Notes: generated from the letters alone by a model not told the origin. Positions 1 through 51,231 are shown, counted from the first letter of the stretch. The stretch is DNA of 64,000 bases from Sporopachydermia quercuum (GCA_001599295.1 BCGN01000002.1:1302001-1366000), one strand, 5' to 3'. Numbers and translations: made by a program.

Positions 1-3000
1 ACAACGGAAGCTAAATACCGGACGATTCCGGTTTTGCCCGAATTGCTCGGTCCGACTAAAATCACGGGCCAATTAGCATTTATGCATGTGATTGTAGTTT
101 CTAGCACGTGATTATTACACTGAAGATACCGAAACTTTCCAGAAAACCAGCTATCAGAAAATCTACTAGATCGGGTGATTATTTCTCTCCCTATTTGCAC
201 TTGGGTTTGGGTAATTGAATAATAATAACTATCGGCTGGAATTTCCACATTAGGTATCACTTCCTGGAAGATCCGCTTAGCGTAAAGTCTATCCTGGTTA
301 CTTCGGAACCTTAATTTGATAACCAGGCCGAAAAATTCCCCTAATAATCCTGATCTATTTCGACTGCGCCTCAAAGTGGCTCCGCTATATAGCTTCAGCC
401 ATCTTAAAATATCTCTTAAATTAACTTCCCAGGGTCCACCTAACGATCCGAATTTACCCTTACCGAGTTCTTCGGATATTTTGGACACAAACCTAATCAA
501 TCCCGAAATTTCCTCTTCGGGTATTTCTGGGAACACATATTTCCCAATTAGGTCCAAATCTTCCTGTTTAAGTGTCTCTACAAACACAACACTGAACCGA
601 TTAACAAACGATTTTGGTAACCCTTTCCGACTTCCTCCTTGAGCTTGAGGATTCTGGGCGGCAAACACTCGGAACTTCGGATCACATCGGAATGTTCGAT
701 CAAGTTCGGGTATATAAGCTTCCGCTCGATGATCCAAACACGCATTTAAACCTTCCAAAACCGGTTGAGACGCTAAATTCATCTCATCTAGTAAAACCCA
801 TTGCCCAGATTGCATAGCTCGAAGAAACGGAGCGTCTTTCCAGACAAATTCTCCGGCAGATCCGTTTGGAGCGGGAGAGTCGGAACCAAAAAGGTCAATT
901 AGATCGGTTTGTTCCGAAAGGTTAATTCGAATAAGGTTTTGGCCGGCCGCAGACGCTAAAGCCGAGATCAACGTTGTTTTACCCACTCCCGGGCTTCCTT
1001 CTAATAAGATCGGTTTCCGGGATTGCATGGCTCGGATGACTCGGAAGGCGTTCTGGGCAGTTGTCGGGGCATTAAGGTTGAAGTTTTGTTCTAGAGAACC
1101 ATCCGAAGTCAAGCGGGGAATACAGAAATAGCCGGTCCGGACATATTCAGAGGTTATTTCTACAGGGAAAACCTTCTGAATCTCCGATCGGAAATCAGTG
1201 ACGGCTAATTCTCCGAGTTTTCCAACACAAATTCTTTTTTCGGACATCAACCGAGGAGAATTCTCGGCTAAATAACCCGTTTGGTTCGTCCCTAAAGCGT
1301 CAATGAAAACCATAAGTGCTCCATGTAATAAAGATACTTTGGGCTCAATCGTTTCCGTTTCAGCTTCCGTTTCTTCTTCCGACACGGAGTTAATAAAATT
1401 CACCCAAGCTAAAATATCTCGCAACGAAACTACCCCGCTTCCTAAATTACCCCCGCCGTACCGGAAACCAAACCATTCGGAAAATTTAACTATGGGATCT
1501 GTCAAACAAATCACAGGCGGTTTCAACCGAGCGGACACAATCTCTGCAACATCCGAGCTATCCTCCATGCTCGGAACCCAAATCTCGGTAAATCTGTTCC
1601 GTAATGCTGGAGATAGTTCCTTTTTACCGTAATCTCCTCCGGGATTCATAGTAGCTAAGAACTGGAATTTAGGTTCCGAGGTTACAAATGCATCGACCGA
1701 TCCTTTTTCGGCTAATAATAAAGTTCGCTCTGGTTCCAGTACCGAATTCAACCTTTCAAGCACGGAATCCTCGGCTAAGGAGATCTCATCAAATAGGAAA
1801 TAGTCCCCGCTTTTCATGGCTTGTACTAATGGTCCGTCCGTCCATTGGAATAATTGGGTCAACTTCTTTCTGTTTTGGGAAATTCTTTCCGCTATGGGAA
1901 TAATTTCGGGATTAGTAAATAAGTTTCCATGGTCAGCCCGGAGTTGATCGTATTGGGCATTAAGGTTCTCCTGTGTATTATCAATCAGAAACTCTAATTC
2001 AAGTTCCGAAGTGATCATCTTTATCACAAGCTCTAAATCCCGGGCTAATTCTGTTTGTATCACATCTCGGTTCCGCACTGGTCTTTGTGCTCCGATAATG
2101 TCTCCTGTCTCGGTGTTTTGCTGTCCATTCAGTACGACTAAATCACATCCGGCCTCCTCCGCAATTAGTTGACAGATTGTAGTTTTCCCGCACCCAGTTT
2201 CTCCTACAAGTAAAACTGGTTCCGAGTTTTTCAATGCCGAGCGGATCAAAACCGCCAGCCGACGCATGCTTTTAGTCCATACTACGTTTAGCCGGTTATC
2301 GGGGTTAAATAACGCCGAGAAATAGGAGCTCTCCTCCATATGTTTATAAACTTCAGGAACATTAAGCCGAACTCTCATCACATGCTCTAAAACTTCCCGA
2401 ACCTCGGCTTTTTCTCCCGCTTTCCGCACCTTTTCTGCTAATAACATGTATCCATTAAACGCTAATTCCTCGTACCCGACGGCAGGTCGGGCCGCCCATC
2501 GGAATAAGTCTCGAAGAGTAGCAAATCCATGTTTGTGCTCTAAAACTCGGCTTGCTTCCCTTCTAAGTAACAATTCTCGGTACACAGATACAATCTTCTT
2601 AGCATATGACGGGGCAATTTTACATCGGTCTCGGATGATCGTCTCTAGTTCATTTTCGGGTATATCCGAGAAATGCAGCTCTAAAAATCTATTACGGAAA
2701 GCTCGGGAAAGAACTTTCCGACCTCCGTAAACCCCCGGCGGGTTTTGAGTAGCGAAGAGCATGAATTCTGGATGGGGACGGACAATTTCTTGCGTTTCGG
2801 GTATAAATAACTCTCTGTTATCGTCCAATAACCGGTTCAGAGCCTCCAAAACGTCCGTGGGAGCCAAATTAAGTTCATCTAGCACAATCCAGTAACCGTT
2901 CCGAAGCGCTGTTACTAATGCGCCCTCTTGGAAACCGAGCCGACCTTCGGAATCGGATGTATACGTTCCAAGATATTCCTGAAGATCTGTATGTTCATGG

Positions 3001-6000
3001 TTATTTATCCGAACTACTTTATGACCTGTTTTGGCCCCTAAATAACGAATCATAGATGTTTTACCGGCAGATGTAGGACCTTGGATTAAAACCGGAAATT
3101 TCTGGCCCGCTGTTGCCCGGATGAGGTTTCTGAGGTTTGATTCAACCGAAGGTGTTAAGATATAGTTCGGATCATCGGAACAAGGTTCCGGTCCCTTCCG
3201 CAGCCAGAAATCTCTATAAAGGATATAAGACACATTAGCGTCGTCAGTCTTAGGTTTCGGTTCAATTGGCGCGGAACTCAACACTGATTTAGGGTTTTTA
3301 ACCCGATTCTTTCCGAAAATATGCGTATAAATTACCTCATGGAGTAGAACAGCCGACTTCGAATCCAAAACGGTTAATAAATTCATACACAGTGCCTCAT
3401 ATAAAGCTCGGCGTAACCCAAACTGTTCCGAAAGATCCCGAACGTACAATAAACTTCGGGTCAACGTTCGGACAGAAAAATGGGGCGGATCTCCCGCTCC
3501 GTCGGCTATTTGATGCTCTGAAGCTAACTTTTTAGCCGTCATATGCACTTCTGCAACATCGGTCACAGCAAAATCGTCTCCGGCAGTCATGGGACCGAGA
3601 TATCGGGATATAATAGCCGTTAAATCGTCGTAATTCTCATCTGGGGACCGGATATACAGTTCGGTTAACCGAGCCCGGAACCCTACCGGAAGATCCCGCT
3701 TTCCGACATCAGTTGCCGGGTTCATACAAGCGAAAAATCGGAATTCGGGATGAACCGGAATAGCTTCCACGTCACCTTTTTCTGATAATAGAAGTTTCCG
3801 ATCTCGGAAGTTCTCGGATATCAACTCCGAAATGCTCTCTAATGTTTCAGGGGCCGCTAAATTGATTTCATCTATTAGCAGCCAATCTCCGTTCCGAACG
3901 GCTTTAACTAGGTTACCTTCGGTGAACTTAAATGTGAAAGAATTACCAGATTGGGCTAATTGAATGCTGAATTCAGTAACCTTTGTATTAAAACTTTCCC
4001 ACTGTATCTTAAGAAGGGAATTTTCTCCGGTATTCAGCTTCCTTTTCTTCCGTTTCCGATCTGAAGGTTCTGCTGGTTCCGCTGGCTCTGAATCCTCATC
4101 ATTTCCGAAATTATTCTCGGAGAGAACCTCTTGTGCCATTTTAACTGCTTCTTGCCACAGCCGAGCCACATGTTTCCATTGGCCTTTCTGCATACATTTC
4201 GTTAAAACTCGGGCAAATCGTTCATTTTTCTTCCGTGAAAAGGTTGCGTTGAATAGTTCTGAAAACTCCTCTTGTAATGGGACGGCAATAATAGCAGAAT
4301 TGACTGGTTTATAACCTCCAAGAAGATCTCCGGTTTCGGTTTGCTGTGACACGTTGATTACAGTTAGGTTCTTACGCATCATTCCTGCAAGTTGCTGCAC
4401 TACCGTCGTTTTACCGGTACCAGTTTCCCCGACTAGTAATAGCGGTTCGGCTAGATCGACAGAAACGGCAAGTTGTTCCAATAGGGTTTTTGCCTGGTTC
4501 GTAAATGCAAATGAGTTACTTGATTGGGATAAAAGTCTAGCTTGCTTCGCTTGTGTTACCCGTTTAGGATACTTTCTAAGGCTCATGCGTCCGATTGAGA
4601 TGGCTTCTGAGGATTCGGAAAACTTCGGTGCATGATTAGACACAAATAAAGTGATTTTTGACCTGGGAATTTGTAAAACCTCTCCGATTTTCTCCGCTAG
4701 AACATTCCGGGCCCCAATTTGAGATAATGAGCCGGCAAAACAATCCACAGCCTCGGCAAAAATAGCATCAGATGAGGCATCAGAGATTTCTAGAGCTGAT
4801 GCCGAGGAAGGGGCAGACGATCCGCTTCCTGATTCGGTTAAAACTCTGCTACTTCGGCGACACCATTTCATTAAATCTCGGACCGAAATTACCCTATTAG
4901 AGGCTCCGCCGCGGCTTAACATTTTAAACCGAGGATTATTGTACATGCTAATAACAGCATCCAAAGTTTCAACGAACCGATCCGCCAGTTGGTCCAGAAT
5001 GGGAAATTTGTTCTGAATTATCAATTTGAGTTCTGGTTCTGTAATCTCCGGAACTTTAACTATATTCCATAACCGAAGGCCTATCATTTCCGGTATTTCA
5101 TTACTACTTCTAACAGCTGAACCTGTTCGAACCGTTGCTAATAACCGGAAGCCGGATGAAGCTTTAATGATTTCTCCTCGGCTCGGAATTGTCAATTCAC
5201 GCTTTTCTAATAAGGTTAATAGTACGGAAAGGATTTCAACAGGAGCTCGGTCAATATCTTCCACTAGAACCCATTTCCCGAGCTTCACCGCTTGTGTCAA
5301 CACACCAGGTCTCCATTCAAATGATCCCGGTACGGAACCGGAAGCATAAGTACCCAAGAGCAGTTTAACGTCTGTTTGTGTTCCGAGATGAATACTAACT
5401 ATGGTAGAAGCTGCAGGTGGAGCTATTCGAGATGCTAATTCCGAGATCAGGAAGGACTTTCCGGAACCGGCAGGTCCTATGATTAGAACCGGGTTTTCGG
5501 ACTGGATGTTATGGGCAAGATCGGATAAAACACGTTCCGAATTTTCGGTTGGGATATAAATATTTTCCAGAATTGAGCCTGAGTCTGAGCATGAGCCGAC
5601 ATTGTTTCCGTTTTCAATCTGTGAATCATTCACATTGTAAACAAGTGCATTACCAACTATTTGTAACTCTGGAGATATACTAGCTGTGGTGATTTGGGGA
5701 ACAATATTAATTCCGGTTTCTTCGGCAATGAAAAGATCGGTATGTTTATTGTTGTCGATTAAATCTCGGCATTTTTTCAGTCGTTCCGCTTCCGATAATG
5801 CAAAATAACGGAAAGATATCTGCCGGTTAGGAAACCCATCGAATTGACCTAATATTTCCGTTTCGGCACCAATAACGGCATCAATGGTTCCACATATCAT
5901 GTTTTCCGAATAGTTTAAATAACATCCGATAATCCGAACTGATAAATATTTAACCGGAACATCAGTATTAAAGAATAATGTATACATTATGCTTGGATCA

Positions 6001-6506
6001 ACTATCATTTGGAACCGATGTCGATCATATGATATTATCCGATAGATAGCGGTTAACAACTTCACAATAAATGGTTTCTGTTCCGCATTATTTCCGTTAT
6101 TATGTAGATATTGAGAGATTTTATTATGCTGATCATTTAATATCTTATCCGTTATGGCTAATAGTTCCGATGCTAATGGTAATAGTTTGGCTAAAACGGA
6201 TATTATATCAATCCATTGAGTAATCTTCTCCGCTTTAACAACAACATCATTATCCGAGATGAGTTCCGCTTTTCTAATCCTTCGGATCAGCAATTCGGGA
6301 AAAATCGGATTAAAATATCCGTAAATTACTTCCGGTTCCTCTATAGATTTATCGCTAAGTTGTTCAATCAAATTCTCGGCTGTAATTGCTGCTGATTCAT
6401 TGTTTGTGATCGTGATTGGGGCCAATCCAATGGTTTCTGCATATTTGTTGAACTCATTTAATGGTTTTTCCAATTGGAATGCAAATTGGTTGTTATTGTC
6501 TTTCAT
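1..6506 (-). CDS. MDN1: Midasin/Rea1 dynein-related AAA+ ATPase (60S maturation), 5' portion; continues beyond the window start
   Basis: Minus-strand frame starts at ATG 6506 (MKDNNNQFAFQLEKP) and has successive AAA modules: GPAGSGKS, GETGTGKT, GPTSAGKT, GETGCGKT, GSPGVGKT and GPSNSGKT Walker A motifs, plus DEINLA/DELNLA/DEISLA/DEMNLA Walker B motifs. It is missing from the ORF track, presumably because it has no stop inside the window. Confidence 0.96.
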   Translation of the reverse strand, partial: MKDNNNQFAFQLEKPLNEFNKYAETIGLAPITITNNESAAITAENLIEQLSDKSIEEPEVIYGYFNPIFPELLIRRIRKAELISDNDVVVKAEKITQWIDIISVLAKLLPLASELLAITDKILNDQHNKISQYLHNNGNNAEQKPFIVKLLTAIYRIISYDRHRFQMIVDPSIMYTLFFNTDVPVKYLSVRIIGCYLNYSENMICGTIDAVIGAETEILGQFDGFPNRQISFRYFALSEAERLKKCRDLIDNNKHTDLFIAEETGINIVPQITTASISPELQIVGNALVYNVNDSQIENGNNVGSCSDSGSILENIYIPTENSERVLSDLAHNIQSENPVLIIGPAGSGKSFLISELASRIAPPAASTIVSIHLGTQTDVKLLLGTYASGSVPGSFEWRPGVLTQAVKLGKWVLVEDIDRAPVEILSVLLTLLEKRELTIPSRGEIIKASSGFRLLATVRTGSAVRSSNEIPEMIGLRLWNIVKVPEITEPELKLIIQNKFPILDQLADRFVETLDAVISMYNNPRFKMLSRGGASNRVISVRDLMKWCRRSSRVLTESGSGSSAPSSASALEISDASSDAIFAEAVDCFAGSLSQIGARNVLAEKIGEVLQIPRSKITLFVSNHAPKFSESSEAISIGRMSLRKYPKRVTQAKQARLLSQSSNSFAFTNQAKTLLEQLAVSVDLAEPLLLVGETGTGKTTVVQQLAGMMRKNLTVINVSQQTETGDLLGGYKPVNSAIIAVPLQEEFSELFNATFSRKKNERFARVLTKCMQKGQWKHVARLWQEAVKMAQEVLSENNFGNDEDSEPAEPAEPSDRKRKKRKLNTGENSLLKIQWESFNTKVTEFSIQLAQSGNSFTFKFTEGNLVKAVRNGDWLLIDEINLAAPETLESISELISENFRDRKLLLSEKGDVEAIPVHPEFRFFACMNPATDVGKRDLPVGFRARLTELYIRSPDENYDDLTAIISRYLGPMTAGDDFAVTDVAEVHMTAKKLASEHQIADGAGDPPHFSVRTLTRSLLYVRDLSEQFGLRRALYEALCMNLLTVLDSKSAVLLHEVIYTHIFGKNRVKNPKSVLSSAPIEPKPKTDDANVSYILYRDFWLRKGPEPCSDDPNYILTPSVESNLRNLIRATAGQKFPVLIQGPTSAGKTSMIRYLGAKTGHKVVRINNHEHTDLQEYLGTYTSDSEGRLGFQEGALVTALRNGYWIVLDELNLAPTDVLEALNRLLDDNRELFIPETQEIVRPHPEFMLFATQNPPGVYGGRKVLSRAFRNRFLELHFSDIPENELETIIRDRCKIAPSYAKKIVSVYRELLLRREASRVLEHKHGFATLRDLFRWAARPAVGYEELAFNGYMLLAEKVRKAGEKAEVREVLEHVMRVRLNVPEVYKHMEESSYFSALFNPDNRLNVVWTKSMRRLAVLIRSALKNSEPVLLVGETGCGKTTICQLIAEEAGCDLVVLNGQQNTETGDIIGAQRPVRNRDVIQTELARDLELVIKMITSELELEFLIDNTQENLNAQYDQLRADHGNLFTNPEIIPIAERISQNRKKLTQLFQWTDGPLVQAMKSGDYFLFDEISLAEDSVLERLNSVLEPERTLLLAEKGSVDAFVTSEPKFQFLATMNPGGDYGKKELSPALRNRFTEIWVPSMEDSSDVAEIVSARLKPPVICLTDPIVKFSEWFGFRYGGGNLGSGVVSLRDILAWVNFINSVSEEETEAETETIEPKVSLLHGALMVFIDALGTNQTGYLAENSPRLMSEKRICVGKLGELAVTDFRSEIQKVFPVEITSEYVRTGYFCIPRLTSDGSLEQNFNLNAPTTAQNAFRVIRAMQSRKPILLEGSPGVGKTTLISALASAAGQNLIRINLSEQTDLIDLFGSDSPAPNGSAGEFVWKDAPFLRAMQSGQWVLLDEMNLASQPVLEGLNACLDHRAEAYIPELDRTFRCDPKFRVFAAQNPQAQGGSRKGLPKSFVNRFSVVFVETLKQEDLDLIGKYVFPEIPEEEISGLIRFVSKISEELGKGKFGSLGGPWEVNLRDILRWLKLYSGATLRRSRNRSGLLGEFFGLVIKLRFRSNQDRLYAKRIFQEVIPNVEIPADSYYYSITQTQVQIGREIITRSSRFSDSWFSGKFRYLQCNNHVLETTITCINANWPVILVGPSNSGKTGIVRYLASV

Positions 6507-7525
6507 TCTGATGAAACGTTGGTAATTAATTATATTATTAAAAACAGTAATGAGCGAAAAGTCGTAATATTGATAATAGTAATAGTAGTAATACAGTGTA
6601 ACAGCGACACAGTGACCCAACAGCTCGAAAAGACCGATAGCAAACAAAAGGTTGAATTTCCTAACGATAAACAAAATATCACTGAATAGAAAGAGTCCAA
6701 TTATATACTGTTTTATTTCACTGTTTCTTACTGTTTTGCTGTATGCTTTTACTGTTATTTTAATAGATTTTTATCACAGTTGTATGTCATTTGATAGTAG
6801 AAAAGTAAAAGGAATCACATTATTTTTTTTCATGTTAAAGGAAAATTTTTGTTTACTGAGAGAATCAATGGAGGNACCTCATATGGGACTCTAGATTATT
6901 TTTAAGGGAGTGTAGGAGAGATGGTAAGGCACTCTATATGTACAATATATGCATAATTTCAACTTATGACTGATTCTTACATATCCTTTGCATATTATTC
7001 ACATGTCTTAACTAGTCAAAAATTAATTACATGAAAACTAAACAAAAAAAGGCTTTGCGAATACCCAGCCATTTATCAGTCACTTCCAACAAGCTTTTAT
7101 AGGATGTACTAACCTTTCAATTAATATTAGCCTTTTTTCGCTTCTGATAATGGTATATAAATTGCATTGCTAATCATTTCATCCAGTATACCTCACATGA
7201 GACTCTATGTCACGTGAGTTTAAATTCTACCCAAATCTAGAATCCATCACCCAATTCCGGAAACTATTATCTCAGCTTAATAAAAGAGTGTAATCAATGA
7301 GTGAGGTGCCTGACATACTAATTATACCAGAATAGCCCTTATTATCCGTTTCCACTTACTCATTAATTCGAATCATCAATAATTAACATTCTTACTGCCA
7401 ATTCAATGCTGTCAGCAACACCTGATTCTCATAGCTATACCAATTCTTTTACAAGGTATATTGAATGTCTCTGAGCTACTTATCTACACATGTACAATAT
7501 AATACAATAAACAGACTGATCACAA

Positions 7526-8733
7526 TTGGTTTTCAGTTGGTTTCCAGCAAAACTGTTCAAATCTATTGAAAGATCCTTATCTAAAGCCCATATTGAATGT
7601 CCTGCTACTAATTTCAAATTACCGAACTGTCTCCTCTCCCATAATCCTGACTCAGAAGCTAGAGCTTTGGCTCTAGCTAGGTATGCTACTGTTAAGAAAA
7701 GAAGACCTTCTCGTCACAGCAGTAGAGGAGATCAAGATCCTTATACAGAAAACGGAAATCGTAGCGGTTATAGAGAGAATAACAGAAGCAGAAGAACTAG
7801 AGATTCATCGTCAAGGACAAGTTCGCGTTCTCGATCCAGACCTAGATCGAGATCGAGATCAAGGAGAACTTCAACCTCTACCACAGGAAAAACTCCAATA
7901 ACCCCTAGAACTCCTGGCTATCCTTCACCAACGGGGTGGGAAATGTTTAATAGATCTGCTAGTAATCCACAATCAAATACAGTACATAACTCTGAAATGA
8001 AAGAAAAAGCGAAAGAAGAAAAGAACACTCTTTATAACACCAGCGAAAGACATATGAGTGGAAGAACAGTAGATTTAGAAAACGCTCATGAGCAATGGCT
8101 GATAATGGTGATCGTGCTTATGAAACAAGGGGACCTTCAGAGCATGGAAGGAACAGTTTTGAAAGTAGAGAAATAGCTAGTTCTGCCAATGGTGTTGCTT
8201 TGGGTAAACGGAAACGTTGGAGATCGAGAGATGATGAATGGCAAGAGAGTCCTAGAAAAGAACCTAGATTTGGTGCTCATACGCCGGCAGCACAACGATG
8301 GAAGTCAACTGGAGGAGTTTTAAACCATGAGGATAACCCTGGGGATAACAAATATAGGAATGGCGATGATAATGAACAGAATCAGGATCAGAATCAAGAC
8401 AAGAATATGCCGGAAGCATCAGGGTGGATAAATGAGTCTGAAGATGAAGAAAATTTGTTCCCTATTCAAGTTAACTCTGGTACGGCCTTAGGAGCTCAAC
8501 AACGCATGAGTTATTTACAAGTGTTAGTAGATGTTATGAAAGTTGATGGTTTACAAGGATTTGTTCATAAAACAATGGATGAAGAAGCTTATATTGCTAG
8601 AAGGTTTTCTTCTAAGTTTAGGTATCATGATGAGGTGAGAAGGCTCATTCAACTAGTGGAAAATGGCCGTTGGGAAGAATGGTTGATTGATAAGCAAAAC
8701 GTCAAACAATCTGGTTGTTCTCGAACTCAAAAG

Positions 8734-8781
<48 letters not shown>

Positions 8782-9974
8782 TATAATGAAACGACCATCG
8801 AACAAATGTTTGATTTCTTTGGATATTCTTGAAGAGAATGAATATGTTACTACAATACCACAAGTTATAGTGGCAAAACAGCTTGAAGAAGAACGAGAAT
8901 TACAGCTCAAGAAGCAAGAGCGAATAGCAAAAGAACAAGAAGCTGAGTATAAGAAGAGAAAATATGAAGAAGCTCGTGCTGAAGATGTTATATTATTACA
9001 GAAGAAAGATGTAGCTGAAGCAACACTCAAGGCGAAAGAGAATAAGATTGTTGGTTCTCGAACGTATAATGTTTCTGTCAGTTTATTTCTCACTCAGCCT
9101 AAACATCTTGAAGATAAATCAACGGTTACTCAGAATAAAGTGAGCTGCGTTCGCTGTTCAACAAGTTTTAATCATGAACAAGATATTTGGGGAAGCACCT
9201 GTTCATTTCATTCTGGAAAATTAGGTATGTTTGTGAATTTCAATTTCAAGTTCAAGTTCAAGTGGTTGGTTAGAAGAGGTAGATTTGGTGCATACTTATG
9301 TTATTATTTGGATAGGAACTAACATAGTCGACAGAACGTAAGCATCAAATTAGAGTGTTCAGTTGTTGCCAAAGAAGCCAGGAAGCGAAGGCTGTAAAAT
9401 ATTCAAAACGCATGTGTTTGTTATGAAGAATGTTCATAAAAGGCATAACTGTATCCCGTATAGAGAAAGCACTGATTTAGTTACACCATCAACTAGAGAA
9501 GTTGTTGGAATGGACTGTGAAATGGCATATACACCATTGGGCTTAGAACTGATTAGACTCACTGTTGTAGATTTCCTTATTCGAGAGAAGTTGATTGATC
9601 GGTTGGTTCTACCAAAAGGCGAAGTTCTGGATTTGAATACTCGTTATAGCGGAGTCAATAGTTTGAACGAAACAAATCCAGATAAAGGGGGTCCTGCGAT
9701 TGATTTTGAAGAAGCACACCAGACATTAGCCTAATATGTCAATAGGGATACGATAATTATTGGTCATGCCTTAAATAACGATTTAAATGCTTTAAGGCTT
9801 GTGCATACCAAAGTGATTGATACTTCTATTCTTTATCCAATTTTCAATAGTAATAAGATGTCTTTGAAACGATTATCCGAGATGTATTTGAATCGCAAAA
9901 TCCAATCAAATACTCATGATTCGTTGGAACATGCTGTTGCTGCAATGGATATAGTACAGCTACATGTTGGGTAG
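7526..9974 (+). pseudogene. REX3: RNA exonuclease 3 (DEDDh) pseudogene with frameshifts and an in-frame stop
   Basis: N-terminal LFK..CP..KLPNCLLSH motif; CxxC..C.FH.GK / CC..GC Cys-rich domain split by intron 9225-9333; DCEM, GHALNND and HDSLEH exonuclease motifs. Frame switches at about 8095-8176, 8736-8830 and 9370, and an in-frame TAA at 9732-9734. Divergent from MDN1, as in S. cerevisiae. Confidence 0.85.
8736..8778. repeat. Poly(C) homopolymer, 43 nt
   Basis: Uninterrupted C run read directly from the sequence. Confidence 0.97.
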
Positions 9975-10148
9975 GAACAATAAGAGAAATAAAATAAGTT
10001 CTTACTTCTAGAATGATAGATGTTTTGCATACAAAAGCTATACTATTGAACAAATTAGTTAGTCAGCTAAGTAGTTATTAGCTTATTTCATCAAAGTTTT
10101 CTGCATACCTAAATATATAAATCAAAAGTTCATGGTCACGTCATAGAA

Positions 10149-11498
10149 TTACTTGTTGTTAATTTCCTGTGTTGTGATTTTATTCTCCCGCTCATCTAGC
10201 AAAGTCTTGATCATTTCTGACTGTTCAACAACAATCTCTGACAATGCTGCTATTTGTTTGGTTAGATTGTCCTGTACGACTCGCGCATAACGAGCTTCTT
10301 TCCTCAAATCTAGTAGTAGCCTAGTAAGATCAGCATTTTTTGAGCCTTTTGCAGTTTTGGATGAATTTTCCGATAGAGTGGTTGATGGCCCAGTTTCTTT
10401 TGGTAATGATGTATCATCCCACTTCACGGCTTTCCTTCTTTTGATTGGAGGTTGGAGGTTCTCGACTTCAGTGCTATCGAATTGTAAACTGGGATTACTG
10501 AAGTTATCAAGTTTAACAACACTTGGTCTTAATTTCAAACAGGATTTGGTAGGTGATAAATCAGTAGTATTGTTTGCCGGTTTACCATTATCATTGAACA
10601 CATCTTCGTTATCGGCAAGTTCATCCTTCACCTCTATGTCTTCTGTTTCCACCGCTTTGAGCTTTGTTAGAAGGTTTGCTTTAGGATTGGAAATGCAATC
10701 TTTTTCTTGTGGGTTAATTGATTCATCTGTGGGCTCTGTATATGTGATCATCATTTGCTTTGCTTGTTCTTCAGACTCAGCAGAGAGATCTTGATTCACA
10801 TCTCCGTCTAACGTTTCTTCATCTATAGGTGGGCTAATTTGCTGTTTCCTATGTTTAGGAATACTTTTGCCTCGTAAGGATGTTAATCTAACCGGCGAAA
10901 GGGATGTAATGGGTCTGCTTTCTCTGGAGAACCTTGGTCGGTCAACAGAAAATAAAGACCTCTCTGATTTCTTAGCGTTGGCAGATAACAGTAGTCTGGC
11001 ATGAAACTTGTCGTCGTGAGAAATGGTAGCAGGTACATTAAATATACTAGGCTTCTGAGGAGTTATTGTCACTGTAAAATACTCGTTTTGCTGTCGTTTA
11101 CCTTTTAATTTTATGGGGCTTAGTTTGGAAGGAGGTTTAAGCAAGCCTTGTAGTTCAGGTCCTGACCGATTCTATTAAAATTAAGAGTTAGTATGTTGTT
11201 TTTTGAGACAGATTGCCTATGTAGATAGAATATCAAACGCCTTCATGCAACAGATGGAAATCAACTGGTCCGACTGAACTCCAACGCTTCTACCAATATT
11301 CTTTCCTCCAAGTTGTAACTATTTACGTACCCTGTTTCTAAATGGTGACACAGCTGCTTTCAAATTGTCATCCGTCTTACTTTCAGGATAAAGGTTATGT
11401 CTGTTGGTTGAAGATAGTACATTTGCTGTTGATTTCTTCTGAGGGCTTTCGCTTCTCTGAAGTCTTCCTCCTGCTATTGATAACCCTGTTGAATGCAT
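10149..11498 (-). CDS. Uncharacterised two-exon protein (about 396 aa), low-complexity with a C-terminal coiled coil
   Basis: Exon 11331-11498 (MHSTGLS...PFRNR) and intron 11172-11330 (GTACGT...TACTAAC...TAG) join in phase 0 to the 10149-11171 frame. Confidence 0.8.
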
Positions 11499-12671: not shown

Positions 12672-12846
12672 AGTATTGGTCCAAAGTCTTTGTTGTGGTG
12701 GTGATTAATGTATCTATTATTGAAGGCAAAGAGGTAACGCTCTTTGGTTATAAATACGTAATCATGATCAAATTTCTAACAAATAGTCAGAGAAGAGAAA
12801 ACATAATTTATTGACTAGAAACCTCATTATTAAGATATTTTCCATA

Positions 12847-30057: not shown

Positions 30058-33000
30058 TCATTGATCCTTTTTACTTTCTTTCTCACTCTCATTCGCAACG
30101 CTTTGAACAGTTCTAACAGCAATATCTGATGGTTTGAAATCAGCGAAGAAAAACTTCAATCCAATCTCAATCAAATAACTAATAACAAAATCTAATATCA
30201 TAGTAACTGTGAGCTTGAATTTGAACAAATCTGTCATTGGAACAAATTGCATAGCTTCATTCAACTCAGGAATAAATTCTGTTGATCCTGCTAATGATAA
30301 TGCTGCAACTCCTAATAATCCGTAATACATTCCTTTGTTTTCACTCAATCCTTGTCGGAATGGTCGGCCTTGATAATTGCAGACAAATGTTGAAACATTC
30401 AACGATAATTGCAATAAGAAAATCGCCGTACATAGCAATGACGGTTCAAACTCTCCATCTAAATCAACGGCTTCTTTCCTTGGCTCAATTTTATAAACTT
30501 CATTAGCAACATAAATAAATGAGGCAATATGAACAACGAATTGTCCAATAATTGATCCCATAATGTAAATATTGAAGATACCTGGTTGAGGTCTTTGAGC
30601 TGATAGTTTTTCAATAGATTTTGATCTTGAGATACTCAAGAAACACACAGATAATAAGATTCCTGAAGCTGTTTGTTGGGTGTCACCATATTTAATTCCT
30701 GCAAGGTATAAAACTGATAATGAGTAAGCAGAAATCAGACAATTCAGTGCTAAAATCTTATACATTTGAATCGTTGAAACAAGGGCACATCTACCTTGGC
30801 GAATGATATGAGCAACAGCAGAAACGTTCGCTAGTTTTGAAGTGAAAGGTGCAGCAACTGAAGCATCACCAAGTTTCAATTGGGGAGGTTCTCCATCTTC
30901 ATCCAACATGTCAGTTAACTTATCAGCAAAAGCAGCTGATTTCTGTTCTGCAGTTTCAACATTTGAGGAATTTTCAAGCTCTTTTCTAATCTCTGCAAGA
31001 GTATTTTCATCTAAAACAATACCTTTCTCTTGCATAACCGTCAAATAATGAGGATTATCAACTCCCGGTGGATATAAATGAGCAATAGCTTTTGGCACAG
31101 GAGGAACTTTCCCATTGGGATTCCATTTTTTCATTAATTCTTTCTGCTTCTCATACGTCTTTTGAAGTCGGTCAGATTTGGCATTTTCAATCATCTTTTG
31201 CATACCCTCAGAAGTACCATTAAGTAAAGCAACTCCTACATCAGCTTGTTTAAGAGCTCCAACATCATTGGTACCATCACCACACATTAAAGTCATATAT
31301 CCTAACTCTTTTAATTGGGTCAGAATGAATTCCTTTTGAGAAGGCGAAACTCTGGCGTAGATCCAAGTATGACGAATGAGCTTCTTTAACTGTTTGTGAG
31401 ATTCTAATTTGGCTAGTGCATGTCCGCTCACGCAGATATCGTATTTATCAAATAAAGATTCGTCAATATCATCATTAGCATTAAGAGGAATAATGATTGA
31501 TTCATCAACGGTTCTCCATACTAAATCATGATCAGTTTTCACCAGTAAAGTTTCATCAGGCTGATCAATGATCAGTACTTCTCTTTCGGTAATGGCAACT
31601 TCCTTCGCAACATGACAGGCAGTTAAAGGATTATCACCAGTGATCATCACACATCTATGAGAAGATTCATTAAGCATTTGAATAGTTTCAATTGCATCTT
31701 CTTTTAAAGGACAGTGGAAAACGAGAAATCCTCCAAACTCAAGCTTGGATTCAATTTCCTTCCTATCAAAATTATTCACCTTCTTAGCTGTGATGTTATC
31801 GTTGAGATATTTATATCCTAATGCTAAAACACGAGATCCGCTTCTGGTGAATGATTTGAAGGTTTCATCGTAGTTTTCTGGAACAGACACCAACATTTGT
31901 TTGATAGTTTCTGGTGCACCTTTAACACCAACAATTGTCTTCGCTCCATAGGAAGCAATACTGGAAGATCTCTTCAAAGCAGAGGAAAATTGAAATCTAC
32001 GTAAGATTTTAACATGTTCAGCGTTAGGAATAGAACCAGGTTTTTGATTCGATTGTTTCTTCCTTTTAGAAGCATCTACCTTATAGCAAACATCGTTTTC
32101 ACCGACTGTCCACGAAATGGCATTCAAAGTAGCCTTTTCTAAAGGATCACCGACGATATCACCATCGTCCAGAAGAACTAGAGCATGGGCAGAAGCTAAG
32201 GTCAAAATTGTATGTTTAGGAACGTCATCAACGCCTGAGAGCTGGGTGAGATTTTCATTGAAACCAGCAATACCTTCAAAGACCAAATCTTCACCAGTAA
32301 GAGTACCAGTTTTATCAAAACAGCAAACATCGACTCTTCCAGCATATGGAATTCTAAATGGCTCAGTACAGTATATGTAGAATTTACCTAAAGCGGCCAA
32401 TGAATTGTTAACAGCAATTGTAAGTTCCATAGGCAATTCTGGAGGTACGACCGAAGTAATAATAATGACACAGTCTAAAAGCAATTTGGATCTCTCACGG
32501 TCGATTTTAACACCTTCTTTCCAAACATACCAACTAGCGGCAATAGCGAATTGTAATAAGAAAAGAATGAAAAACATAGCTTCTTTGTTACCAACGCCAA
32601 CTCTTTCGGTTGAAAAAATCATTACTCTAACTAAAGATCCTTGAGACGTTTCAAACCCAGTTTTGGTGACAACAGCTAAAGCGCCATCATCAGGGGGAGC
32701 AGAAATCTTTGGTGCAACAGGTTTTGTTATTTGCAGTACTTTGGTACCACCATGAAGTATGGAATTTTTGTCAAGGCCTTCGGGATCAAAACTGTCTTTC
32801 GGATCTCTTAGAAGGAGAGATTCTTTCAATAAAGGAGTCGATTCACCAGAAAGCATTGCTTCGTTAACAATAGCAGTTCCGTCTAATAGGATCAAATCGC
32901 AAGGCAAAACTGATTCTTCTGTTGAACGTAAGACGGAAACAACATCACCAGGGAGCAGATCATCAGTCTGACGCTCTTGCCATTCACCATTACGATACAC

Positions 33001-33926
33001 ATTTATTGCATAGGGTTTAACGCCCATACCTCGGAACTCCATGAGAGTAGCTCTTCTTTGGAAGACGACAGTTCCTTCAAACATAACAAGCATAAACAGT
33101 GTAAACAAGGAATAATACCAATACTCATCAAGTAGCCATAAGCCGACACAGAAGATTTGGAAGACAAAGAAAGGAGCAACAGCATGTTCTTTGAACAGTT
33201 CAGAAAATGATGGCACTGGGATATCAAATCTGTTTTTACCATACATTCTCATCATTTTCTCGGGATTTCCAGTCAATCCAACAGAATCCTGGAAATCTTT
33301 GATAGTAGGCTTTGAATCAACAAAGAATTCGGGCGGTGAGAAAGAATCAGTAGTTGCATCATATAGAAATCTCCTCTTTTGATAGAGAAAAGAGATTTGA
33401 GCTTCGTCATCTTCGAATTCATCACGGAAAATAGTACAAATATCACCAACTCCACAATTGGGTGCTGGCAGAATTTTGATCATATCAGCCTCATCAACAG
33501 AGTTTACTTTGATACCTTGGAAAGCAGCTTTGATGTTAATATTCCAGAATGGCATCAACCAAAGTAGCAATTGTAAAGAAACAATTGTTCCTAAGTAGAC
33601 AGTGGTCCATTCTCTTCCGTTTATATACTCTTCATAATGATTGACAAAAATGTGAAAGAAAAAACCGTATAAGAAGACGAATGGCCAAACATGAGGTCTT
33701 TGAATAAGAGGTCTAGGCTTTAGAAGCGTTGCTTCTACGATGGTTGGGTTTGGCACGAGCCTTGGAAGCTCAGCAGCAGGTTTGACCGCCCTAGAAAAAG
33801 AAATGTTAGCCGCTCAGCCAATTCAAATGTAGGAGGAAAGCCCCAGCGGTTCCATATAGCAGTATAATCAACAGAGAATAATAGTAATGATAAGCAGGCA
33901 GATCCAAGGGTAAATAACACATACAT
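30058..33926 (-). CDS. SPF1: P5A-type ATPase (ER transmembrane helix dislocase)
   Basis: SGES, PPELPMEL, FDKTGTLT, TGDN and GDGTND motifs. The start codon is split AT|G by intron 33791-33924. Confidence 0.95.
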
Positions 33927-44383: not shown

Positions 44384-47300
44384 TCAGTACTTCAGCCTTC
44401 TTTCCATTTTATTCCCATTGTCTTGAATAAGCTTAGCAAGCTTTGTTTTCTGAAAGTTGAATGATGGATCAACTACACACATTGGGTCATTTAGTAGTTC
44501 TTTTGCTGTTGGCCGTTTCTCNGGATCACTGGAATTTCAATGTTAGTAATCAGACTAAATAGCACTACATAGTAATCAAACAGTAATCAAATATTTACAA
44601 CAATAAATGATCAGCCAATCCTTCTTTCCCCTAGCAAATATACTTACATATTACAACACTCCTGAAGAATGAAGTTCTGAGCATCTTTCGAAACATACGG
44701 AAGAATATCAGAAGGAATTGGTGGTCCCCGCTTTTCACTAGCAACCATAAACATGGCACTGAGAGCTTCTCTCTCCGACCAAGGTCTTCTACCAGCAAAC
44801 ATTTCTAGAACGACACATCCTAAAGACCAGATATCAACTTTAGCGCTGTAGCCTTGTTTTTGGTCGTTTCTTACGCTATCCATGACTTCAGGGGCCATCC
44901 AGAAGATGGATCCTTGCATGAATGAGTTTTCTTCATCGGCATAGGCGTCTCCTATAACGGGAAAGTTAGTGGATGAATTCAGATTCCGGAGGCGGAAAGC
45001 ATAATTGATAGGCTTTAAATGAGGTTTCAAAGATAATTAATACGTACTGCTTCTTTTGGAGATACCGAAATCGGTAATTTTGCACACCCCGTTCAAATCG
45101 AGTAATAGATTATCCGCTTTTAGATCCTATTGTGGTTTTTGTTAGTACACTAATTGTGGTTCAAAATGACTGTTAGCCACAGATAAACTGGAAATGATCT
45201 CAGTAGAATAGAAACCAATAAACCTGAAATCATAGCATAAAAATAGTCTCCAATTCGCTCCGGTATCATTCCCATTTCCCTGTTCCCATTCCCATTCCCA
45301 TCCCCATTTCTGTTCCTTCTGTATACTTACTCTATGCAGAATACCATTAGCATGCAAATATGCCAAACCTTTCAACACCTGCGCTAATAAAAACCTAATC
45401 AAGCTCTCATCAAACCTTCCATAAGCCTTTATGCACGTTCCAATTGACCCTCCAGGAACGTATTCTAGAAACAAACTATAAAAGTTGTCCTTTTGTTCGA
45501 AACCTAAATACTGGACCACGTTCACGTGATTCAAATCCTTTAAAGTTTCAACCTCGGACGTTAACGCATCAACTAAATCGGCTACTCGGCTTCTCGCCAA
45601 CGGATGTTTGGGAACCTCCACCTGTTTTACTGCCATCATTTCACCAGTAGTAATGTTCATGGCAATGAACACTTTAGCAAATGTCCCTTTCCCTATTAGT
45701 TCACCTTTCACCCAAGCCATTGGCCTGTCCTTGGTATCTGTTGTTGTGAGCAAAGCTGTGACTGCGCTTTTATTCTTTGTATCGTTTGGTTTCACTTCAA
45801 TTACCTTTTGGCCCCATAGTTTTGTACTGGTGCGTCTAAGGATAGCACCCGAAGAACCCGGCAAAGGAGTGCTTGCCATAGTGATTTTCCGTCTTGCTTC
45901 ACTTGCTTCTCTTGCAACCACGCGTATACTTTTCATTCTCCGATGTAAGCCGGTATTATTTCCGGTATTGGCGGGTTTGTCTTTATTCCGAAGTTTATTG
46001 TTGATTAGGTGATCACTACTATTATCTTCTCCAGGATTTCCCAGACCGGAATCCATGGAAGTATTGCCCGAGTTATTATTTGCGCTTTTAAGGTTCAGCT
46101 TCCGTTTATTCAAACCGTCCATTTTAGGGGAAATGGGCGAAGGAAGCAGTCCTTCTGCCACAATTGGTTGATCCAGATCCGTATCAGGAAAGAACTTTTC
46201 CAAATTCTTATATAAAACGTCTTCTGAAGGTCTCATTGCCCAATTACTACTTTCAAGTGGAGTCACTTCATCTCCTCCGGTTTTATGATTTCCGCTATTG
46301 TCAGAACTAGCGGTGCTGCTATTACCATTGTTGCAGCTATTGCTATTACTATTCCTATTACTATTGCCATCTTCTCCGTCTNTTACCCTCGCAGGGCTTG
46401 TCACTACAGGCCGTTTAGCCCATAGGCCATCATCGGATTCATCAGTGGAAACGCCTTCCGAACCGTCGGATTCCTCATTGGGAACGTTATCAAAGTTAAT
46501 TTCGTTTTCCCTAAACTGTTCGTCTGTTGGCCGTTCTAGGGTACTAACGAATCGTTTTGAACTTTTGCGGCGAACGAAGTTATCGCTATAGTTTCCGCTT
46601 CCATATTCGCTCCCCCTTTCGGGTTCTGAGTTACTACTTCCGGCAGTAGACACAACTGTGGCTGAGCTAGTGGTGCTATTACTGTTCATAGAATGAGTAG
46701 CTTTCAGATTCTGGTTTCCAGGNAGCCTTGGAGGTGGAGGGGGTGCAGCCCGCTTGGCTATAATACTCTTATCCTCATAAGGCGATAATCTTCGTTGGTC
46801 AAAGTCGATTTCCTTCTTTCTGAGTACTCGGAAGGATTCATTTCCGGTAGGAGAATGTGTTTTGGTTACCTGCTTGATGAGAGAAGCGCCTTGCTCTTTC
46901 AGCTGTTTCGTGGTCATTCCNGAGCTTGAGGAGGGGAAGGGAGTTAATTCGGCCGAGTTATGGTGTTTTCTGGCTGCTGTGGCAGAGTTGGATGCTTGGC
47001 TGTCAAAAGCGGAATGGCCAGATATGGCTTGACTACCTGGTTTAGAGGCTCCATGAATTTTGTTGTTGATAGCGTTAACCAGCGTTGCCGAATTAGGAGC
47101 TTGCGGCGGTTGTGGTGGCTGTGGCGGTTGTGGCGATGGCGTATCTTCGCTACTTCCAGTAATAGCACCACTATTTTCGCCAGCATTACCGCCTGCACCG
47201 CTTCCTGAGCCCCAAGCACCCTTCGGAGGCTTCTTCTGTAACCCGGCTTTATCCCGCTCACTCCTATCCGAATTTCCTTTATTTCCATANGTCTTATAGT

Positions 47301-50300
47301 TCATATAATCAACTTCCACCTTCCCATCACCGTTTCCATTTCCGCTATCACCACTTCCGTTCCCGTCATACAGATACTGCGGCGTAGAAGGGTACTTTCG
47401 ACCGTCAACGCCTGCTTCAAAAGAATAACTGTCGCTGCCTGAACGGTTGGCCCGCATCGCATAAGGGTAACCATTATGAGCACTGCCATGCGCATTTGTA
47501 TGCGTGTTTTCCACTGTTTGCTGCTTGACGAACAGTTTGACTGAATAGTTGAAAAACTGCGTGTCCCGCAGAACTTCCAGGTGCTTGCTGTCCAGCGCTT
47601 CGCCTTCCGAACAGTTGAAATCTGTTAAATGCAACGTGGCACCAGAACTATTGGAAATACTCAACAGCTGGCACAACGCGGTCGCGATGTCAACATCCTT
47701 CTTGTATACCAAATCGCTCACATCCAGAGCTTCAAACCAGGTGTTATCTTTGGTGATTAAGATGGATTTGATGTTTTTCATCACGGGGATGGGCAGGAAT
47801 TCGATGGGAAATGTGGATTCTGGCGTTGGGGCATTTGCAAAAGAATTTGAAGGTGAATTCTGTTTCTTTCGTTGCATTAGAGGGTTTGGTAGCGAAATGT
47901 TGCTTGAATTGTTGAAAGATAAGCTTATAGGCGTAGAAGAAGTGGCGATTGTTGGGGGCATNGATGGCACTTTGGTTAAAGGATTTTGAACCATTTGTCC
48001 TTGTTGGAAGCCTGTGCTAGCTTCATTGGCNCAACTATCGCTGTTTTTCTCTCTTTCAGGCTCATCTTTCTCCCCTTTGGATTCCCTAACATTACTACTA
48101 CTATTATCGGTATTATTGGTGGTCGCATCAATGTTCACACTGCCGATGCATCTTCTGTTTCTATCGTTTGACCGTGAGGGCAAATCAAACGCTGCGTTAG
48201 CGTTGCTGCTACCACGAGAAGGGCTTACAGGTGATACCAGCGAGAAACGGGATTTATCTTTCCGTTTGAGCTTCTGGAGGATATTGGTTCTCCCCGTGCC
48301 CGAGCTGTTAGAGGCGACGGCCGCCACGGAGGAAGCAGCTGAGGTCCTCGGGCCAGAAATGGTTCCTGGAGTAATTCCTGTTCCAGTGCCCCCGCCAGCG
48401 CCTGGGCCCCCTTCATCGTTTGTTAACGATAAGCTGGAGGCGCTGGAAGACTGGAAAAACGTGTTGATCGACGACTCAGACGAATTTGACTTCTTGTGCC
48501 TTCGAAACAGGCCAAATGTTAACGACGGCGACGACGGCGATAGGGAAACACCTCCCCAGAGTTTTGATGGACCTGAAGTGCTGGTGGCAGATGACGGGCC
48601 GGATGTGCTGGTGACGCCGCCGGCTGTTTCGTGAACAGAAAAAGGTCGCATGGTTGATCTTTTCCCTGTGCGAGCTTTGACTGCTGTAGGATAGATGCTT
48701 NCGGTATTATTTTCTGCAACAGCGNTGGCAGTAACAGCAGTAGCTCTGCTACCATTGCTAGTGCTAGTCCTAATGGCATTGCCACCGGTACTGCCAACGT
48801 CACAAGCGCTGACACTAGAAGAGAAAGAGCTGGTGCTTTCGAGCGATTTTCTTCCTCGTGGTATACTTGCTAAAGGAGCTGAATACACTGGTATTATATC
48901 GTCAGCTTCATTGCTGGAGTTTAGTTGAGCTGATCTTGATCGCACATGGCCAAAGAAGGATGACTTGGTGGCTGAGTTGACAGGAGAGCTGGGATTAGTC
49001 GCAGGGCTGATTGAACTAGTTTCAATACTGGTTTTTCTCGCTTCTTCCCTGGGAGATTCCCCGGAGGGCTCTTTGAAGGGCACTCCGGAAAGTTCTTCAA
49101 CGATAGGTACAATTCCCCTTCGGTGTAACGGTGGAGGGTTACCGTCATTACTGGTAATGTTGTTGCTAGTGTTTGATGCTCTTCCAATAGGGTTAGAATC
49201 AATCACTGACGTCTCATTTGTATAAGAAAGGTCATTCGTAATTGAATTAGCTGTGCTGTTTCCATTGCTAAGGTTGATATTAGGTGATAGCTGATTATCT
49301 GATAGCCCCATCTCAGTATCGGATGGTTTCCGTTGCTTTGAATCAAATCGCCACTCCGATCCTTGGAANTTTTTCTGGTGGGTACTATCACCGACTTCAA
49401 ATTCTGCGTCTGCCTCTGCTTTACCAACCGGGCTCTCATTATTATGAGACACTCCAGTTACATTTAAAGCCTTTTTCAGTAAATTTAGAAACCTGTCGAC
49501 ACCTTCAAATTCACTATTGGACCCAATAATCCTTTTCGCGGCGTCGCACCTAACGACGTCCTTCAGCACATGGTAATTGCTCAGCATGGTGAACCTTCCC
49601 TGCTGGATATCAAGCAAATAAAACAGCGACTTCCAGTAATGGTCAAAGTTGTATTCATCAAGCCACCGCTGGACTTTTTCCATTGGCCAGTCAGTTTGGA
49701 GCATTTGATGATCTGCTTCAGTTGCATTTATGCTTACGTCGATGGTTCTTGCTGGTGAAANCGAAGGAACGTGCACTTCTGAATAGTCAACGTCCTGCAG
49801 GGAATCCCGCATAGAATCGTCTAAAATAGAAGAGGTGCCCGAAAGTGGTGATACCATTAAATCGGTGATAGCTGGGGGCAGAACTGGTGTTCTGTGGTAT
49901 GCCGAGATTGAGCCAGNAGAGCTGCTAACAAGGGAGTATCTGTCTTCGCTCATAAGAAAATTGGTATTAGCATCACTGCTGGCACTGGCACTAGCAGATC
50001 TGGGAGAAGATTGGGAGACAAAAGAGAACTCCGAATCCCCAGGGTTACTACCGCTGAGAATTCTTCTGGATCTCCTGCTGTCAGCTGAGTTTCTAGGCAG
50101 AGAAACGGGACTATTGGAGTAATGTTGGCTTTGAGGAGTGGAAGCAGCAGCAGCGTGGATTTCCGAGTTGTTGCTGAAAGGAGACGATGTTGCAGTTGAA
50201 GTGAACGAGTTGACATTGTCTTGTAGATGGCTGTTATTGGGGTCTGACACAGCAGAGACGTAAGAGCTGAACGAGCTGGAAGTGCGTGACATGGAATTGT

Positions 50301-51231
50301 CATGGGTGTTCAATCCTTCATTGTTGTTGATGTTGGGAGTATTTATGTGTAGATTTCCTTTTCCTTCTGTTTCGTATATGGTTTTATCGTCAGCATGCTG
50401 ATATTCTATTGGCTGCCGCAGTTGGTGATGTGGTTGCTGGTATTGATGGTTCGTTTGATCAATAGGAGATGAATTGGCAGCAAAAGGCCTCGAGGTTGCT
50501 CCTGACGGACTTTCGTAGAAGTAACTGCCATCATTTACATTACCACCGCTGCTACTACTACCATTATAAGGTTTCCCACTGCTGGATTTCCCATAATGCT
50601 GGACCTCGGGAAGCTGAGGCGGCCATGGAGGAAAACTCGGGACAGAATTATCGCCGTTGCTTTTGTCATAAAGTGCTCCCATTGGTCCCGTTCCTTGTCC
50701 TGTGCCCAGTTTTGGATGCCCGCTGATCATTTTATCATATTCATTATCGCCATGATTTAAATCAGAATAGTTCATAATCGACTGCTGAAAACTAAACTCA
50801 GAAACATTAGATGTAGAACTGTTATCAACGGTAAAAGGCGTAGAAGGCATACGATGTTTCAATCCCGATGGATCAAACGATGTTCCTGCTGTGCTTGGTA
50901 TTCCTGTGCCTGCTGATAGCTTATTCAAGGCGCTCGAAGTTAGATGCTGCTTGCTTGCTTTCTTCTTTGACGATTTCCCATTTTTAAGGGGTTTGTTCGG
51001 CTTCTCCTTACCAACGCCCGGTTTTCTGCTCCTGACTCCCGGCATAGCCATAGAAGGATATGGCGAGGAAGAACTTGTTACATTTGCTCCATTTCTAGTA
51101 GACAGTTGCTCCTGGGTGATATCTGAAAAGTCCGGTACATCAACAAAGAACTCGGGTAACTCACTTTCCTTGTAGTTGCCATCCGATCTTCTGGGTTTGC
51201 CCTTTTTGGATTCGTATCGGCTATGGCTCAT
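44384..51231 (-). CDS. BCK1: Cell-wall-integrity MAPKKK, four exons
   Basis: Exons 45331-51231, 45048-45126, 44648-44951 and 44384-44527 rebuild the kinase: GELIGKGTF, AVKQV, HR|DLKADN, DFGISK, MQGSIFWMAPE. The Bck1-type WAMRP..LEKFFP.TDLD motif precedes it. Confidence 0.92.

Follow-up and report, generated by a model that had tools for sequence, protein, structure and literature searches.

The MDN1 (midasin/Rea1) gene of the budding yeast Sporopachydermia quercuum carries a dense overlay of the trinucleotide CCG and its reverse complement CGG, which is written through the coding sequence on both strands and in all codon phases. The gene lies at the left end of a 64,000-nt stretch of DNA (~36% GC; called the window below), to which all comparisons within the genome are limited. 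The list of open reading frames (ORFs) and the translation place its N-terminal 2168 codons at 3..6506 on the minus strand, running off the left window end. In total, 284 CpG-centred sites, on average one per 22.9 bp, were found on both strands of the dense zone at 1..6380, which corresponds to MDN1 codons 43-2168. The overlay is real, specific to MDN1 within the window, strand-symmetric and independent of codon phase, it rests on native codons, it has shifted the encoded protein, and it has a sharp 5' onset. This enrichment is strong and so far unexplained, and the reading tentatively preferred, with a little less than even confidence, is a lineage-specific fixation bias for a duplex word over the body of MDN1, possibly exerted through a reader of CGG triplets.

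Across positions 1-6000, CCG and CGG together were counted 98, 116 and 97 times per 2 kb, with observed/expected ratios of 2.35-2.51 based on base composition, whereas most of the remaining 2-kb segments contain 7-22 copies at ratios of 0.31-0.79. The sites are spread evenly (100-bp bins with mean 4.37 and variance 3.31, 1 of 65 bins empty, longest gap 108 bp), and a local GC dip to 0.34-0.37 at 5501-6250 leaves the word density intact. The word accounts for 284 of the 362 CpGs of MDN1 and, elsewhere in the window, for 434 of 1300, while CpGs outside CCG/CGG are present at the normal density (12/kb in MDN1 and 15/kb in the rest), demonstrating that the excess is specific to the word rather than to CpG in general. 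CCGA/TCGG alone accounts for 151 of the CpGs in MDN1. T precedes CCG at 45% of the sites and A follows at 46%, and the strongest 5-mer, TCCGA/TCGGA, is present 67 times where 2.9 copies are expected from 13 other ORFs, a 23-fold excess. CGGA/TCCG is represented by 147 copies, and CGGAA/TTCCG occupies 77 of 271 opportunities. In terms of word specificity, CCG/CGG is raised by log2 2.17 and GCGA/TCGC is lowered. No longer repeat was found behind the words, as the commonest 8-mers have at most 8 copies and no 12-mer has more than 2. The original prediction, made from the sequence by eye, had described triplets that are dense through MDN1, usually flanked by A/T and scarce in the other genes, and all three features are reproduced by these counts.

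Within the dense zone, the local GC is 0.43-0.45 compared with ~0.36 for the window, and CpG observed/expected reaches 1.11-1.28 in a genome that is otherwise CpG-depleted (~0.6). CpG islands of animals, which are read by CXXC proteins recognizing CpGG, are similar in being kilobase-scale domains with a CpG observed/expected above 1. Different from CpG islands, MDN1 is enriched only in the CpGs of CCG/CGG, and the enrichment is located in a gene body instead of a promoter. A CpG island was therefore rejected, given the normal density of the other CpG contexts, a GC of 0.43 rather than above 50%, and the word-free upstream DNA. Budding yeasts are not known to methylate cytosine.

The word count clearly exceeds what codon usage can provide. 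The MDN1 protein encoded with the codon usage of the neighbouring genes would hold 89-110 CCG/CGG, compared with 329 observed, and 1000 synonymous shuffles with the codon usage of MDN1 itself yielded 242.5 +/- 8.4 (z=10.3). Saturation, referring to the share of sites with a possible synonymous CCG/CGG that actually hold the word, amounts to 46% in MDN1 (329/715), compared with 9.6% in 13 other ORFs (166/1727) and 21.6% in a BCK1-like ORF. Divided by codon phase, the saturation is 0.33, 0.61 and 0.44 in MDN1 versus 0.045, 0.15 and 0.097 in the 13 other ORFs. The coding strand contains 155 CCG and 174 CGG with saturations of 0.34 and 0.36, and longer words are likewise balanced against their reverse complements (CCGA 0.29 and TCGG 0.29; TCCG 0.27 and CGGA 0.31; TCCGA 0.24 and TCGGA 0.29), with CGGA/TCCG at 0.27-0.31 in MDN1 versus 0.03-0.04 for comparison. 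The odds ratios of MDN1 relative to its neighbours are 6-7.5 for 3-mers and reach 18-21 for 5-mers.

Codon choice in MDN1 also follows the bases of the adjacent codon. The usage of NCG codons is 29% before G and 10% elsewhere (odds ratio 3.5), and that of two-fold NNC codons 59% before GGN/CGN and 28% elsewhere (odds ratio 3.75), while in the neighbour genes both kinds of junction are avoided or trendless. Arg following a C-ending codon is encoded by CGA in 28 and by CGG in 14 of 54 cases, and Arg following a T-ending codon by CGG in 25 and by CGA in 9 of 48 cases; as these two preferences are the two strands of CCGA/TCGG, the choice is made at the level of the motif rather than the codon. According to the codon tables, the mutation classes involved are AGA to CGA/CGG, CCT/CCA to CCG, NNT to NNC and GGT to GGA.

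Translational tuning, in which MDN1 would rely on the rarest codons (CGG, CGA, CCG, NCG, GGG) to slow or limit translation, would account for the raised fractions of Arg CGG (0.35) and CGA (0.30) compared with 0.04 and 0.08 in the neighbours, for Pro CCG (0.30 compared with 0.05), and for the likewise raised rare codons ATA, GTG and CTA. However, junction-spanning words are at least as saturated as in-frame words, NCG codons without a following G remain low, and the codon usage of MDN1 itself falls short of the observed word count, so that the phase and context tests have for the most part ruled this explanation out, and it is regarded as highly improbable. Codon pairs that we take to be inhibitory in S. 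cerevisiae had only 4 occurrences, from which no inference was drawn. No tRNA genes that might serve as a boundary or as decoder supply were found in the window, and no second ATG-started ORF of at least 120 aa was found inside 1-6506.

Outside the word, MDN1 retains the codons of its host. The usage of the 1279 MDN1 codons unable to form the word correlates with that of the neighbours at r=0.870, close to the value of 0.889 obtained when the neighbours are split into two halves and compared with each other. The GC content at third codon positions (GC3) of such codons is 0.340 in MDN1 and 0.347 in the neighbours, and the GAT, AAT, TTT and TAT fractions of the two-fold codons are unchanged, indicating that there is no general GC drift in MDN1. 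GC-biased gene conversion islands and compositionally deviant introgressed regions, exemplified in yeasts by the left arm of Lachancea kluyveri chromosome C, share with MDN1 a local GC rise, a protein shift of the Gly/Ala/Arg/Pro type and a scaled strength of ~2-3. Different from them, MDN1 lacks a general weak-to-strong shift, whereas the ordinary rise of GC3 (0.446) is displayed by the BCK1-like ORF. A GC-biased gene conversion island or isochore was rejected on account of the unchanged GC3 and two-fold codons.

The protein itself has been reshaped. MDN1 offers 0.330 word opportunities per codon, beyond the maximum of 0.296 (median 0.237) among 120 homologues from yeasts, while the neighbour SPF1 is ordinary in this respect (0.235 compared with 0.237). 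Compared with its homologues, MDN1 lies at the 98th-100th percentile for R, P, G and E and at the 0th-2nd for K, D, L and H. In the original prediction, the pattern had been assigned to a DNA-level layer on both strands and in all codon phases, rather than to a translational codon preference, with a synonymous-codon shuffle among its proposed checks. The assignment is supported by the phases, the strands, the dependence on neighbouring codons and the protein shift, and the enrichment persists under the shuffle. One of its candidate causes, a mutational or repair bias restricted to the domain, is not supported in the form of a general mutational or GC bias, since the non-word codons have neighbour-like GC3, and a motif-specific repair or fixation bias could still apply.

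The onset of the overlay at the 5' side is abrupt and is located at about codon 43. None of the 7 synonymous opportunities is used in the first 42 codons (6381..6506, minus strand), whereas 9 of 16 are used in codons 43-84 (P=0.013 for the former at a rate of 0.46). The final CCG/CGG site is located at 6377 and the MDN1 ATG at 6506, and the intergenic DNA between MDN1 and a divergent ORF at 8095..8832 (6507..8094) contains the word at background density, with 8 CCG/CGG in 1588 bp or 5.0/kb compared with 51.6/kb within MDN1. The disappearance of the triplets upstream of about 6.4 kb, noted earlier by eye, is thereby confirmed. This boundary refers to the 5' side, as the window does not include the 3' half of the gene.

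The window contains 15 ORFs with a length of 200 aa or more, and the 14 other than MDN1 lack the signature. The BCK1-like ORF, which encodes a MAPKKK of 2029 aa at 45142..51231 on the minus strand, is intermediate in its CCG/CGG count (136 versus 78 expected, ratio 1.74); it shows no context signature (context odds ratios 0.58-0.97), and its raised count results only from a general rise of GC3, which stands at 0.446 at non-opportunity codons. Gene length was accordingly rejected as the cause, since this long ORF is free of the context signature. The overlay is also not a general property of MDN1 genes, as all 16 of 16 metagenomic MDN1 loci examined (32-53% identity) have observed/expected CCG of 0.35-1.01 compared with 2.54 here, and the fraction of their CpGs inside CCG/CGG is 0.25-0.48 compared with 0.79 here, each locus resembling its own flanks.

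A functionless context-specific mutational or repair bias acting in the MDN1 body alone, for example one coupled to transcription or chromatin, would explain the random placement of the sites, the protein drift to Arg, Pro and Gly, and the accompanying changes in other words, namely the depletion of the CpA/TpG words TCA/TGA, CAG/CTG and CAA/TTG and an increase, to a varying extent, of every NCG word. Such a bias is nevertheless improbable. It would have to produce multiple base changes, including A to C (AGA to CGA), and a preference for GGA over GGT; it would have to spare the unconstrained upstream DNA and the 14 other transcribed ORFs; and it shows none of the strand asymmetry that transcription coupling gives.

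An assembly chimera or mis-joined contig, which the original prediction had named as one outcome that would overturn it, was excluded. Contigs of three public runs (2 samples, 2 studies), which possibly comprise the data behind the assembly, span 1-8725 unbroken, and the runs bridge the boundary at a depth equal to that of the next contig (100.5 and 99.3; 23.2 and 23; 31 and 31). Compared with the window, the run from the second study lacks 2 bases at 7194 and has C in place of T at 10003, and none of its differences lies in MDN1. None of the public runs listed is an RNA run. The contigs of all three runs stop at 8726-8789, a repeat that lies inside the ORF at 8095..8832 or at its end; this ORF has no Pfam match.

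The top protein matches of MDN1 are budding-yeast midasins with 48-54% identity, and those of SPF1 (30058..33555) have 61-68% identity; as both genes are only distantly matched, the organism belongs to a poorly sampled yeast lineage. In the MDN1 and SPF1 trees alike (16 shared species), the query is the sister of Nadsonia. Its terminal branch is 0.763 for MDN1 (longest other 0.475) and 0.297 for SPF1 (longest other 0.364), so that the relative length of the MDN1 branch is about double. The congruent tree position and the host-like background codons argue against a compositionally foreign donor, and two marks of a foreign segment, an incongruent phylogeny and a codon usage unlike that of the host, were not found; of a third mark, a sharp compositional boundary, the window covers one side, the onset at about codon 43. 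The phylogeny does not suggest a foreign origin, and MDN1 appears to be the yeast's own, vertically inherited gene; a very close donor relative differing in this word alone would fit the onset within the coding sequence.

Such a donor is at the centre of an alternative judged unlikely, though deserving of some weight, in which introgression or gene conversion would have exchanged MDN1 from about codon 43 for the allele of a close, as yet unsampled relative with a genome-wide CCG/CGG-rich signature, ~6380 being the breakpoint. A mosaic allele would explain why the onset is abrupt within the coding sequence, why the signature is strand-symmetric, phase-independent and randomly placed like a genome signature, why the terminal branch of MDN1 is relatively long, and why the protein composition is shifted as under long residence in such a pressure. 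On the other hand, the donor would have to differ in the word alone, given the host-like non-word codons, and to share the tree position found for both MDN1 and SPF1. None of the 120 yeast midasins reaches the word opportunities of this protein, and 0 of the 16 metagenomic MDN1 loci have a word bias. Moreover, the replacement merely shifts the unexplained CCG-specific force to another genome.

The arrangement of the sites gives no indication of helical-turn spacing. Of the 45 lags, lag 10 has 21 site pairs where 12.4 are expected (z=2.5), with z=1.2 at lag 20 and z=-0.7 at lag 30. The 9.5-11 bp band has a spectral power of 268 compared with 269.5 +/- 29.7 in controls, and four-site chains at steps of 8-12 bp number 3 versus 3.0 expected, which is equalled or exceeded in 251 of 500 controls. 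The 60-400 bp spectrum has its highest peak at 78.7 bp, which is estimated to be non-significant. The runs of triplets about 10 bp apart that had attracted attention at first are thus not reproduced as a periodicity, and nucleosome phasing through such spacing is not supported by the lag, spectrum and chain tests. CGG/CCG half-sites were further compared in four orientation classes with gaps of 0-25, and all |z| were at most 2.5 over 104 tests. Within MDN1, TCCGCGGA has 0 copies and TCCGGA has 3, and dimeric Zn2Cys6 sites of the Gal4 type were rejected, as there is neither a fixed spacing nor a fixed orientation. The suggestion of a Zn2Cys6 array of CCG sites consequently survives in part: independent monomer sites are possible, whereas a paired half-site arrangement is not borne out. 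The likeness to the CDEIII core bound by Cep3 is a by-product of the word, since TTCCGAA/TTCGGAA has 13 copies scattered within the MDN1 ORF, and a point centromere, for which a single core within an intergenic CDEI-II-III unit is expected, was rejected on the same ground, although no search for a CDEII-like tract was made.

Several kinds of base change, on both strands and in all phases, next to upstream DNA that is word-free, argue for a fixation bias rather than for a single mutational process or a codon preference. In the preferred mechanism, a weak and persistent fixation bias would overlay the vertically inherited MDN1 with CCG/CGG from about codon 43, favouring synonymous and amino-acid-changing substitutions alike whenever they create the word, and acting on duplex DNA rather than on codons. 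The word would be best described as TCCGA/TCGGA and CGGAA/TTCCG. Calculated from the odds ratios under mutation-selection-drift equilibrium, the scaled strength of the bias would be ~ln(8)=2 per 3-mer site and ~ln(20)=3 per 5-mer site. The most likely agent would be a putative CGG-triplet reader of the Zn2Cys6 kind, for which each word would be an independent monomer site, and the bias could arise either from selection for site density along an exceptionally long transcription unit or from biased repair directed by the reader. We infer that the bias acts on fixation rather than mutation and on DNA rather than RNA, and likewise that a reader of this kind exists. At the same density, the full gene of ~4,900 codons is projected to hold more than 600 sites. 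It is possible, though doubtful, that the whole transcription unit, that of the longest essential gene, has been overwritten with the duplex word, either as an array of monomer sites for a CGG reader or as paired CCG for mRNA acetylation, which would constitute a gene-specific layer competing with the protein code.

Several observations weigh against a fixation bias exerted by a reader. Binding sites within an essential ORF are expected to hinder transcription, and the reader is putative, with no dimeric Zn2Cys6-type rule of spacing or orientation behind it. The restriction to MDN1 within the window is not explained, the long BCK1-like ORF being free of the signature. The word-free upstream DNA and first 42 codons suit an RNA constraint or a recombination breakpoint equally well or better. 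The MDN1 sequence of one further strain is identical (0 differences), so that fixation bias is not separable from mutation bias by this comparison. At highly conserved columns, the word touches 28% of the differing and 24% of the identical codons, and the lack of a link there places the protein shift in variable positions.

Selection on the RNA, in which UCCGA/UCGGA would serve the pairing or compaction of the longest mRNA (15 kb), or helical CCG would serve the formation of N4-acetylcytidine (ac4C) by Kre33/NAT10, is a rather improbable alternative. It would agree with an overlay that is limited to the transcribed body and spares the 5' end, where RNA structure would interfere with initiation, and with the equal enrichment of the word and its reverse complement on one strand, as pairing requires. 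In 150-nt windows, the stability of the MDN1 RNA exceeds that of recodings with host codons by 2.8 kcal/mol; however, the folding of the native sequence equals that of synonymous shuffles (-32.69 versus -32.45 +/- 0.35, z=-0.7) and that of GC-matched recodings with 144 words (-32.23 versus -32.34 +/- 0.68, z=0.16; local 150-nt windows), and the equal stability of the latter demonstrates that the specific word adds no local stability. As for acetylation, Kre33 is, like Mdn1, a ribosome-biogenesis factor, and mRNA ac4C in yeasts is disputed. PMC11109946 confines eukaryotic ac4C to the CCG motif and describes single-stranded CCG as a poor substrate, which would favour helical CCG. The modification shares its trinucleotide with MDN1, but it requires CCG on the RNA strand, where CGG is equally enriched.

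The closest known analogue of the favoured fixation bias is the monomeric Zn2Cys6 cluster of the Rgt1 type, with the reader in MDN1 remaining putative. According to PMC3639059, Rgt1 binds multiple copies of CGGANNA. Its site clusters in HXT promoters (5'-CGGANNA-3') share with MDN1 the CGG core, an A-rich 3' flank and the presence of many copies, and the 284 sites of MDN1 are random in orientation and spacing, as monomer clusters of this type are. Different from the Rgt1 clusters, which comprise a handful of sites in a promoter or upstream activating sequence, the MDN1 sites are located in an essential ORF, number hundreds over more than 6.4 kb and display no clear preference for A at +6. Bacterial uptake sequences, Chi and HIP1 are genome-wide and often strand-skewed words that are written into coding DNA via silent sites. 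They resemble the MDN1 word in being short and in using all frames through synonymous and conservative choices, in contrast to which the MDN1 word is eukaryotic, strand-symmetric and confined to one gene within 64 kb.

The explanations usual for compositional oddities in yeasts, namely GC-biased conversion, expression-linked codon bias and foreign ancestry, were each tested on MDN1 and none fits. What has been altered is one trinucleotide, neither GC nor codons, at 46% of the possible silent positions of a single essential gene, and the protein has been reshaped with it. If selection is responsible, a coding sequence can hold a second, dense and gene-specific DNA or RNA signal, and the recodable MDN1 provides a tractable route to its reader; if motif-directed repair or conversion bias is responsible, this would be a form of biased fixation new to eukaryotes. 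The saturation of synonymous opportunities per gene is a simple statistic that can be mapped over more than 1000 sequenced yeast genomes. In full-text searches of the literature, including the accessible part of the Saccharomycotina codon-usage paper PMC11540330, no gene-restricted CCG/CGG enrichment or atypical MDN1 composition turned up, which is not proof of absence.

Regarding the remaining genes of the window, Pfam bears out the neighbours named in the original prediction (Vps5/PX, AP medium subunit and MCM3) and adds an Hsp70 and an S-adenosylhomocysteine (AdoHcy) hydrolase. The MCM3 ORF at 40682-42658 (minus strand) begins within the MCM OB domain, with profile positions 82-125 corresponding to residues 1-44, indicating that the N-terminal part lies in an upstream exon or another frame. 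Around SPF1, in the control stretch 28001-34506, an ACT/AGT trinucleotide repeat was observed, in which 8-mers of the ACTACTAC type occur about 10 times. The genes for Hsp70 (24530-26344, minus strand) and AdoHcy hydrolase (53137-54486, plus strand) contain 7.6 and 7.1 junction CpGs per 100 codons, respectively, and nearly none within codons, a pattern that is unlike that of MDN1 and fits the C-ending optimal codons of highly expressed genes.

The BCK1-like ORF is GC-rich (46-49%) and contains much low-complexity sequence. Its frame runs past the kinase stretch 'ILHR' into non-kinase sequence and then to a stop, a tail that points to an intron close to the 3' end. Single-N positions (X in the translation) cluster most densely in this ORF, and the gene looks like an ordinary GC-rich, polymorphic gene, unlike MDN1. 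In total, 39 N runs (40 letters) are present at 6875-62375, all of them single bases with one exception. Their distribution is patchy, with 0 in 1-6874, 0 in 6876-20930 and about 1/kb thereafter, and they probably represent heterozygous or ambiguous calls that were masked.

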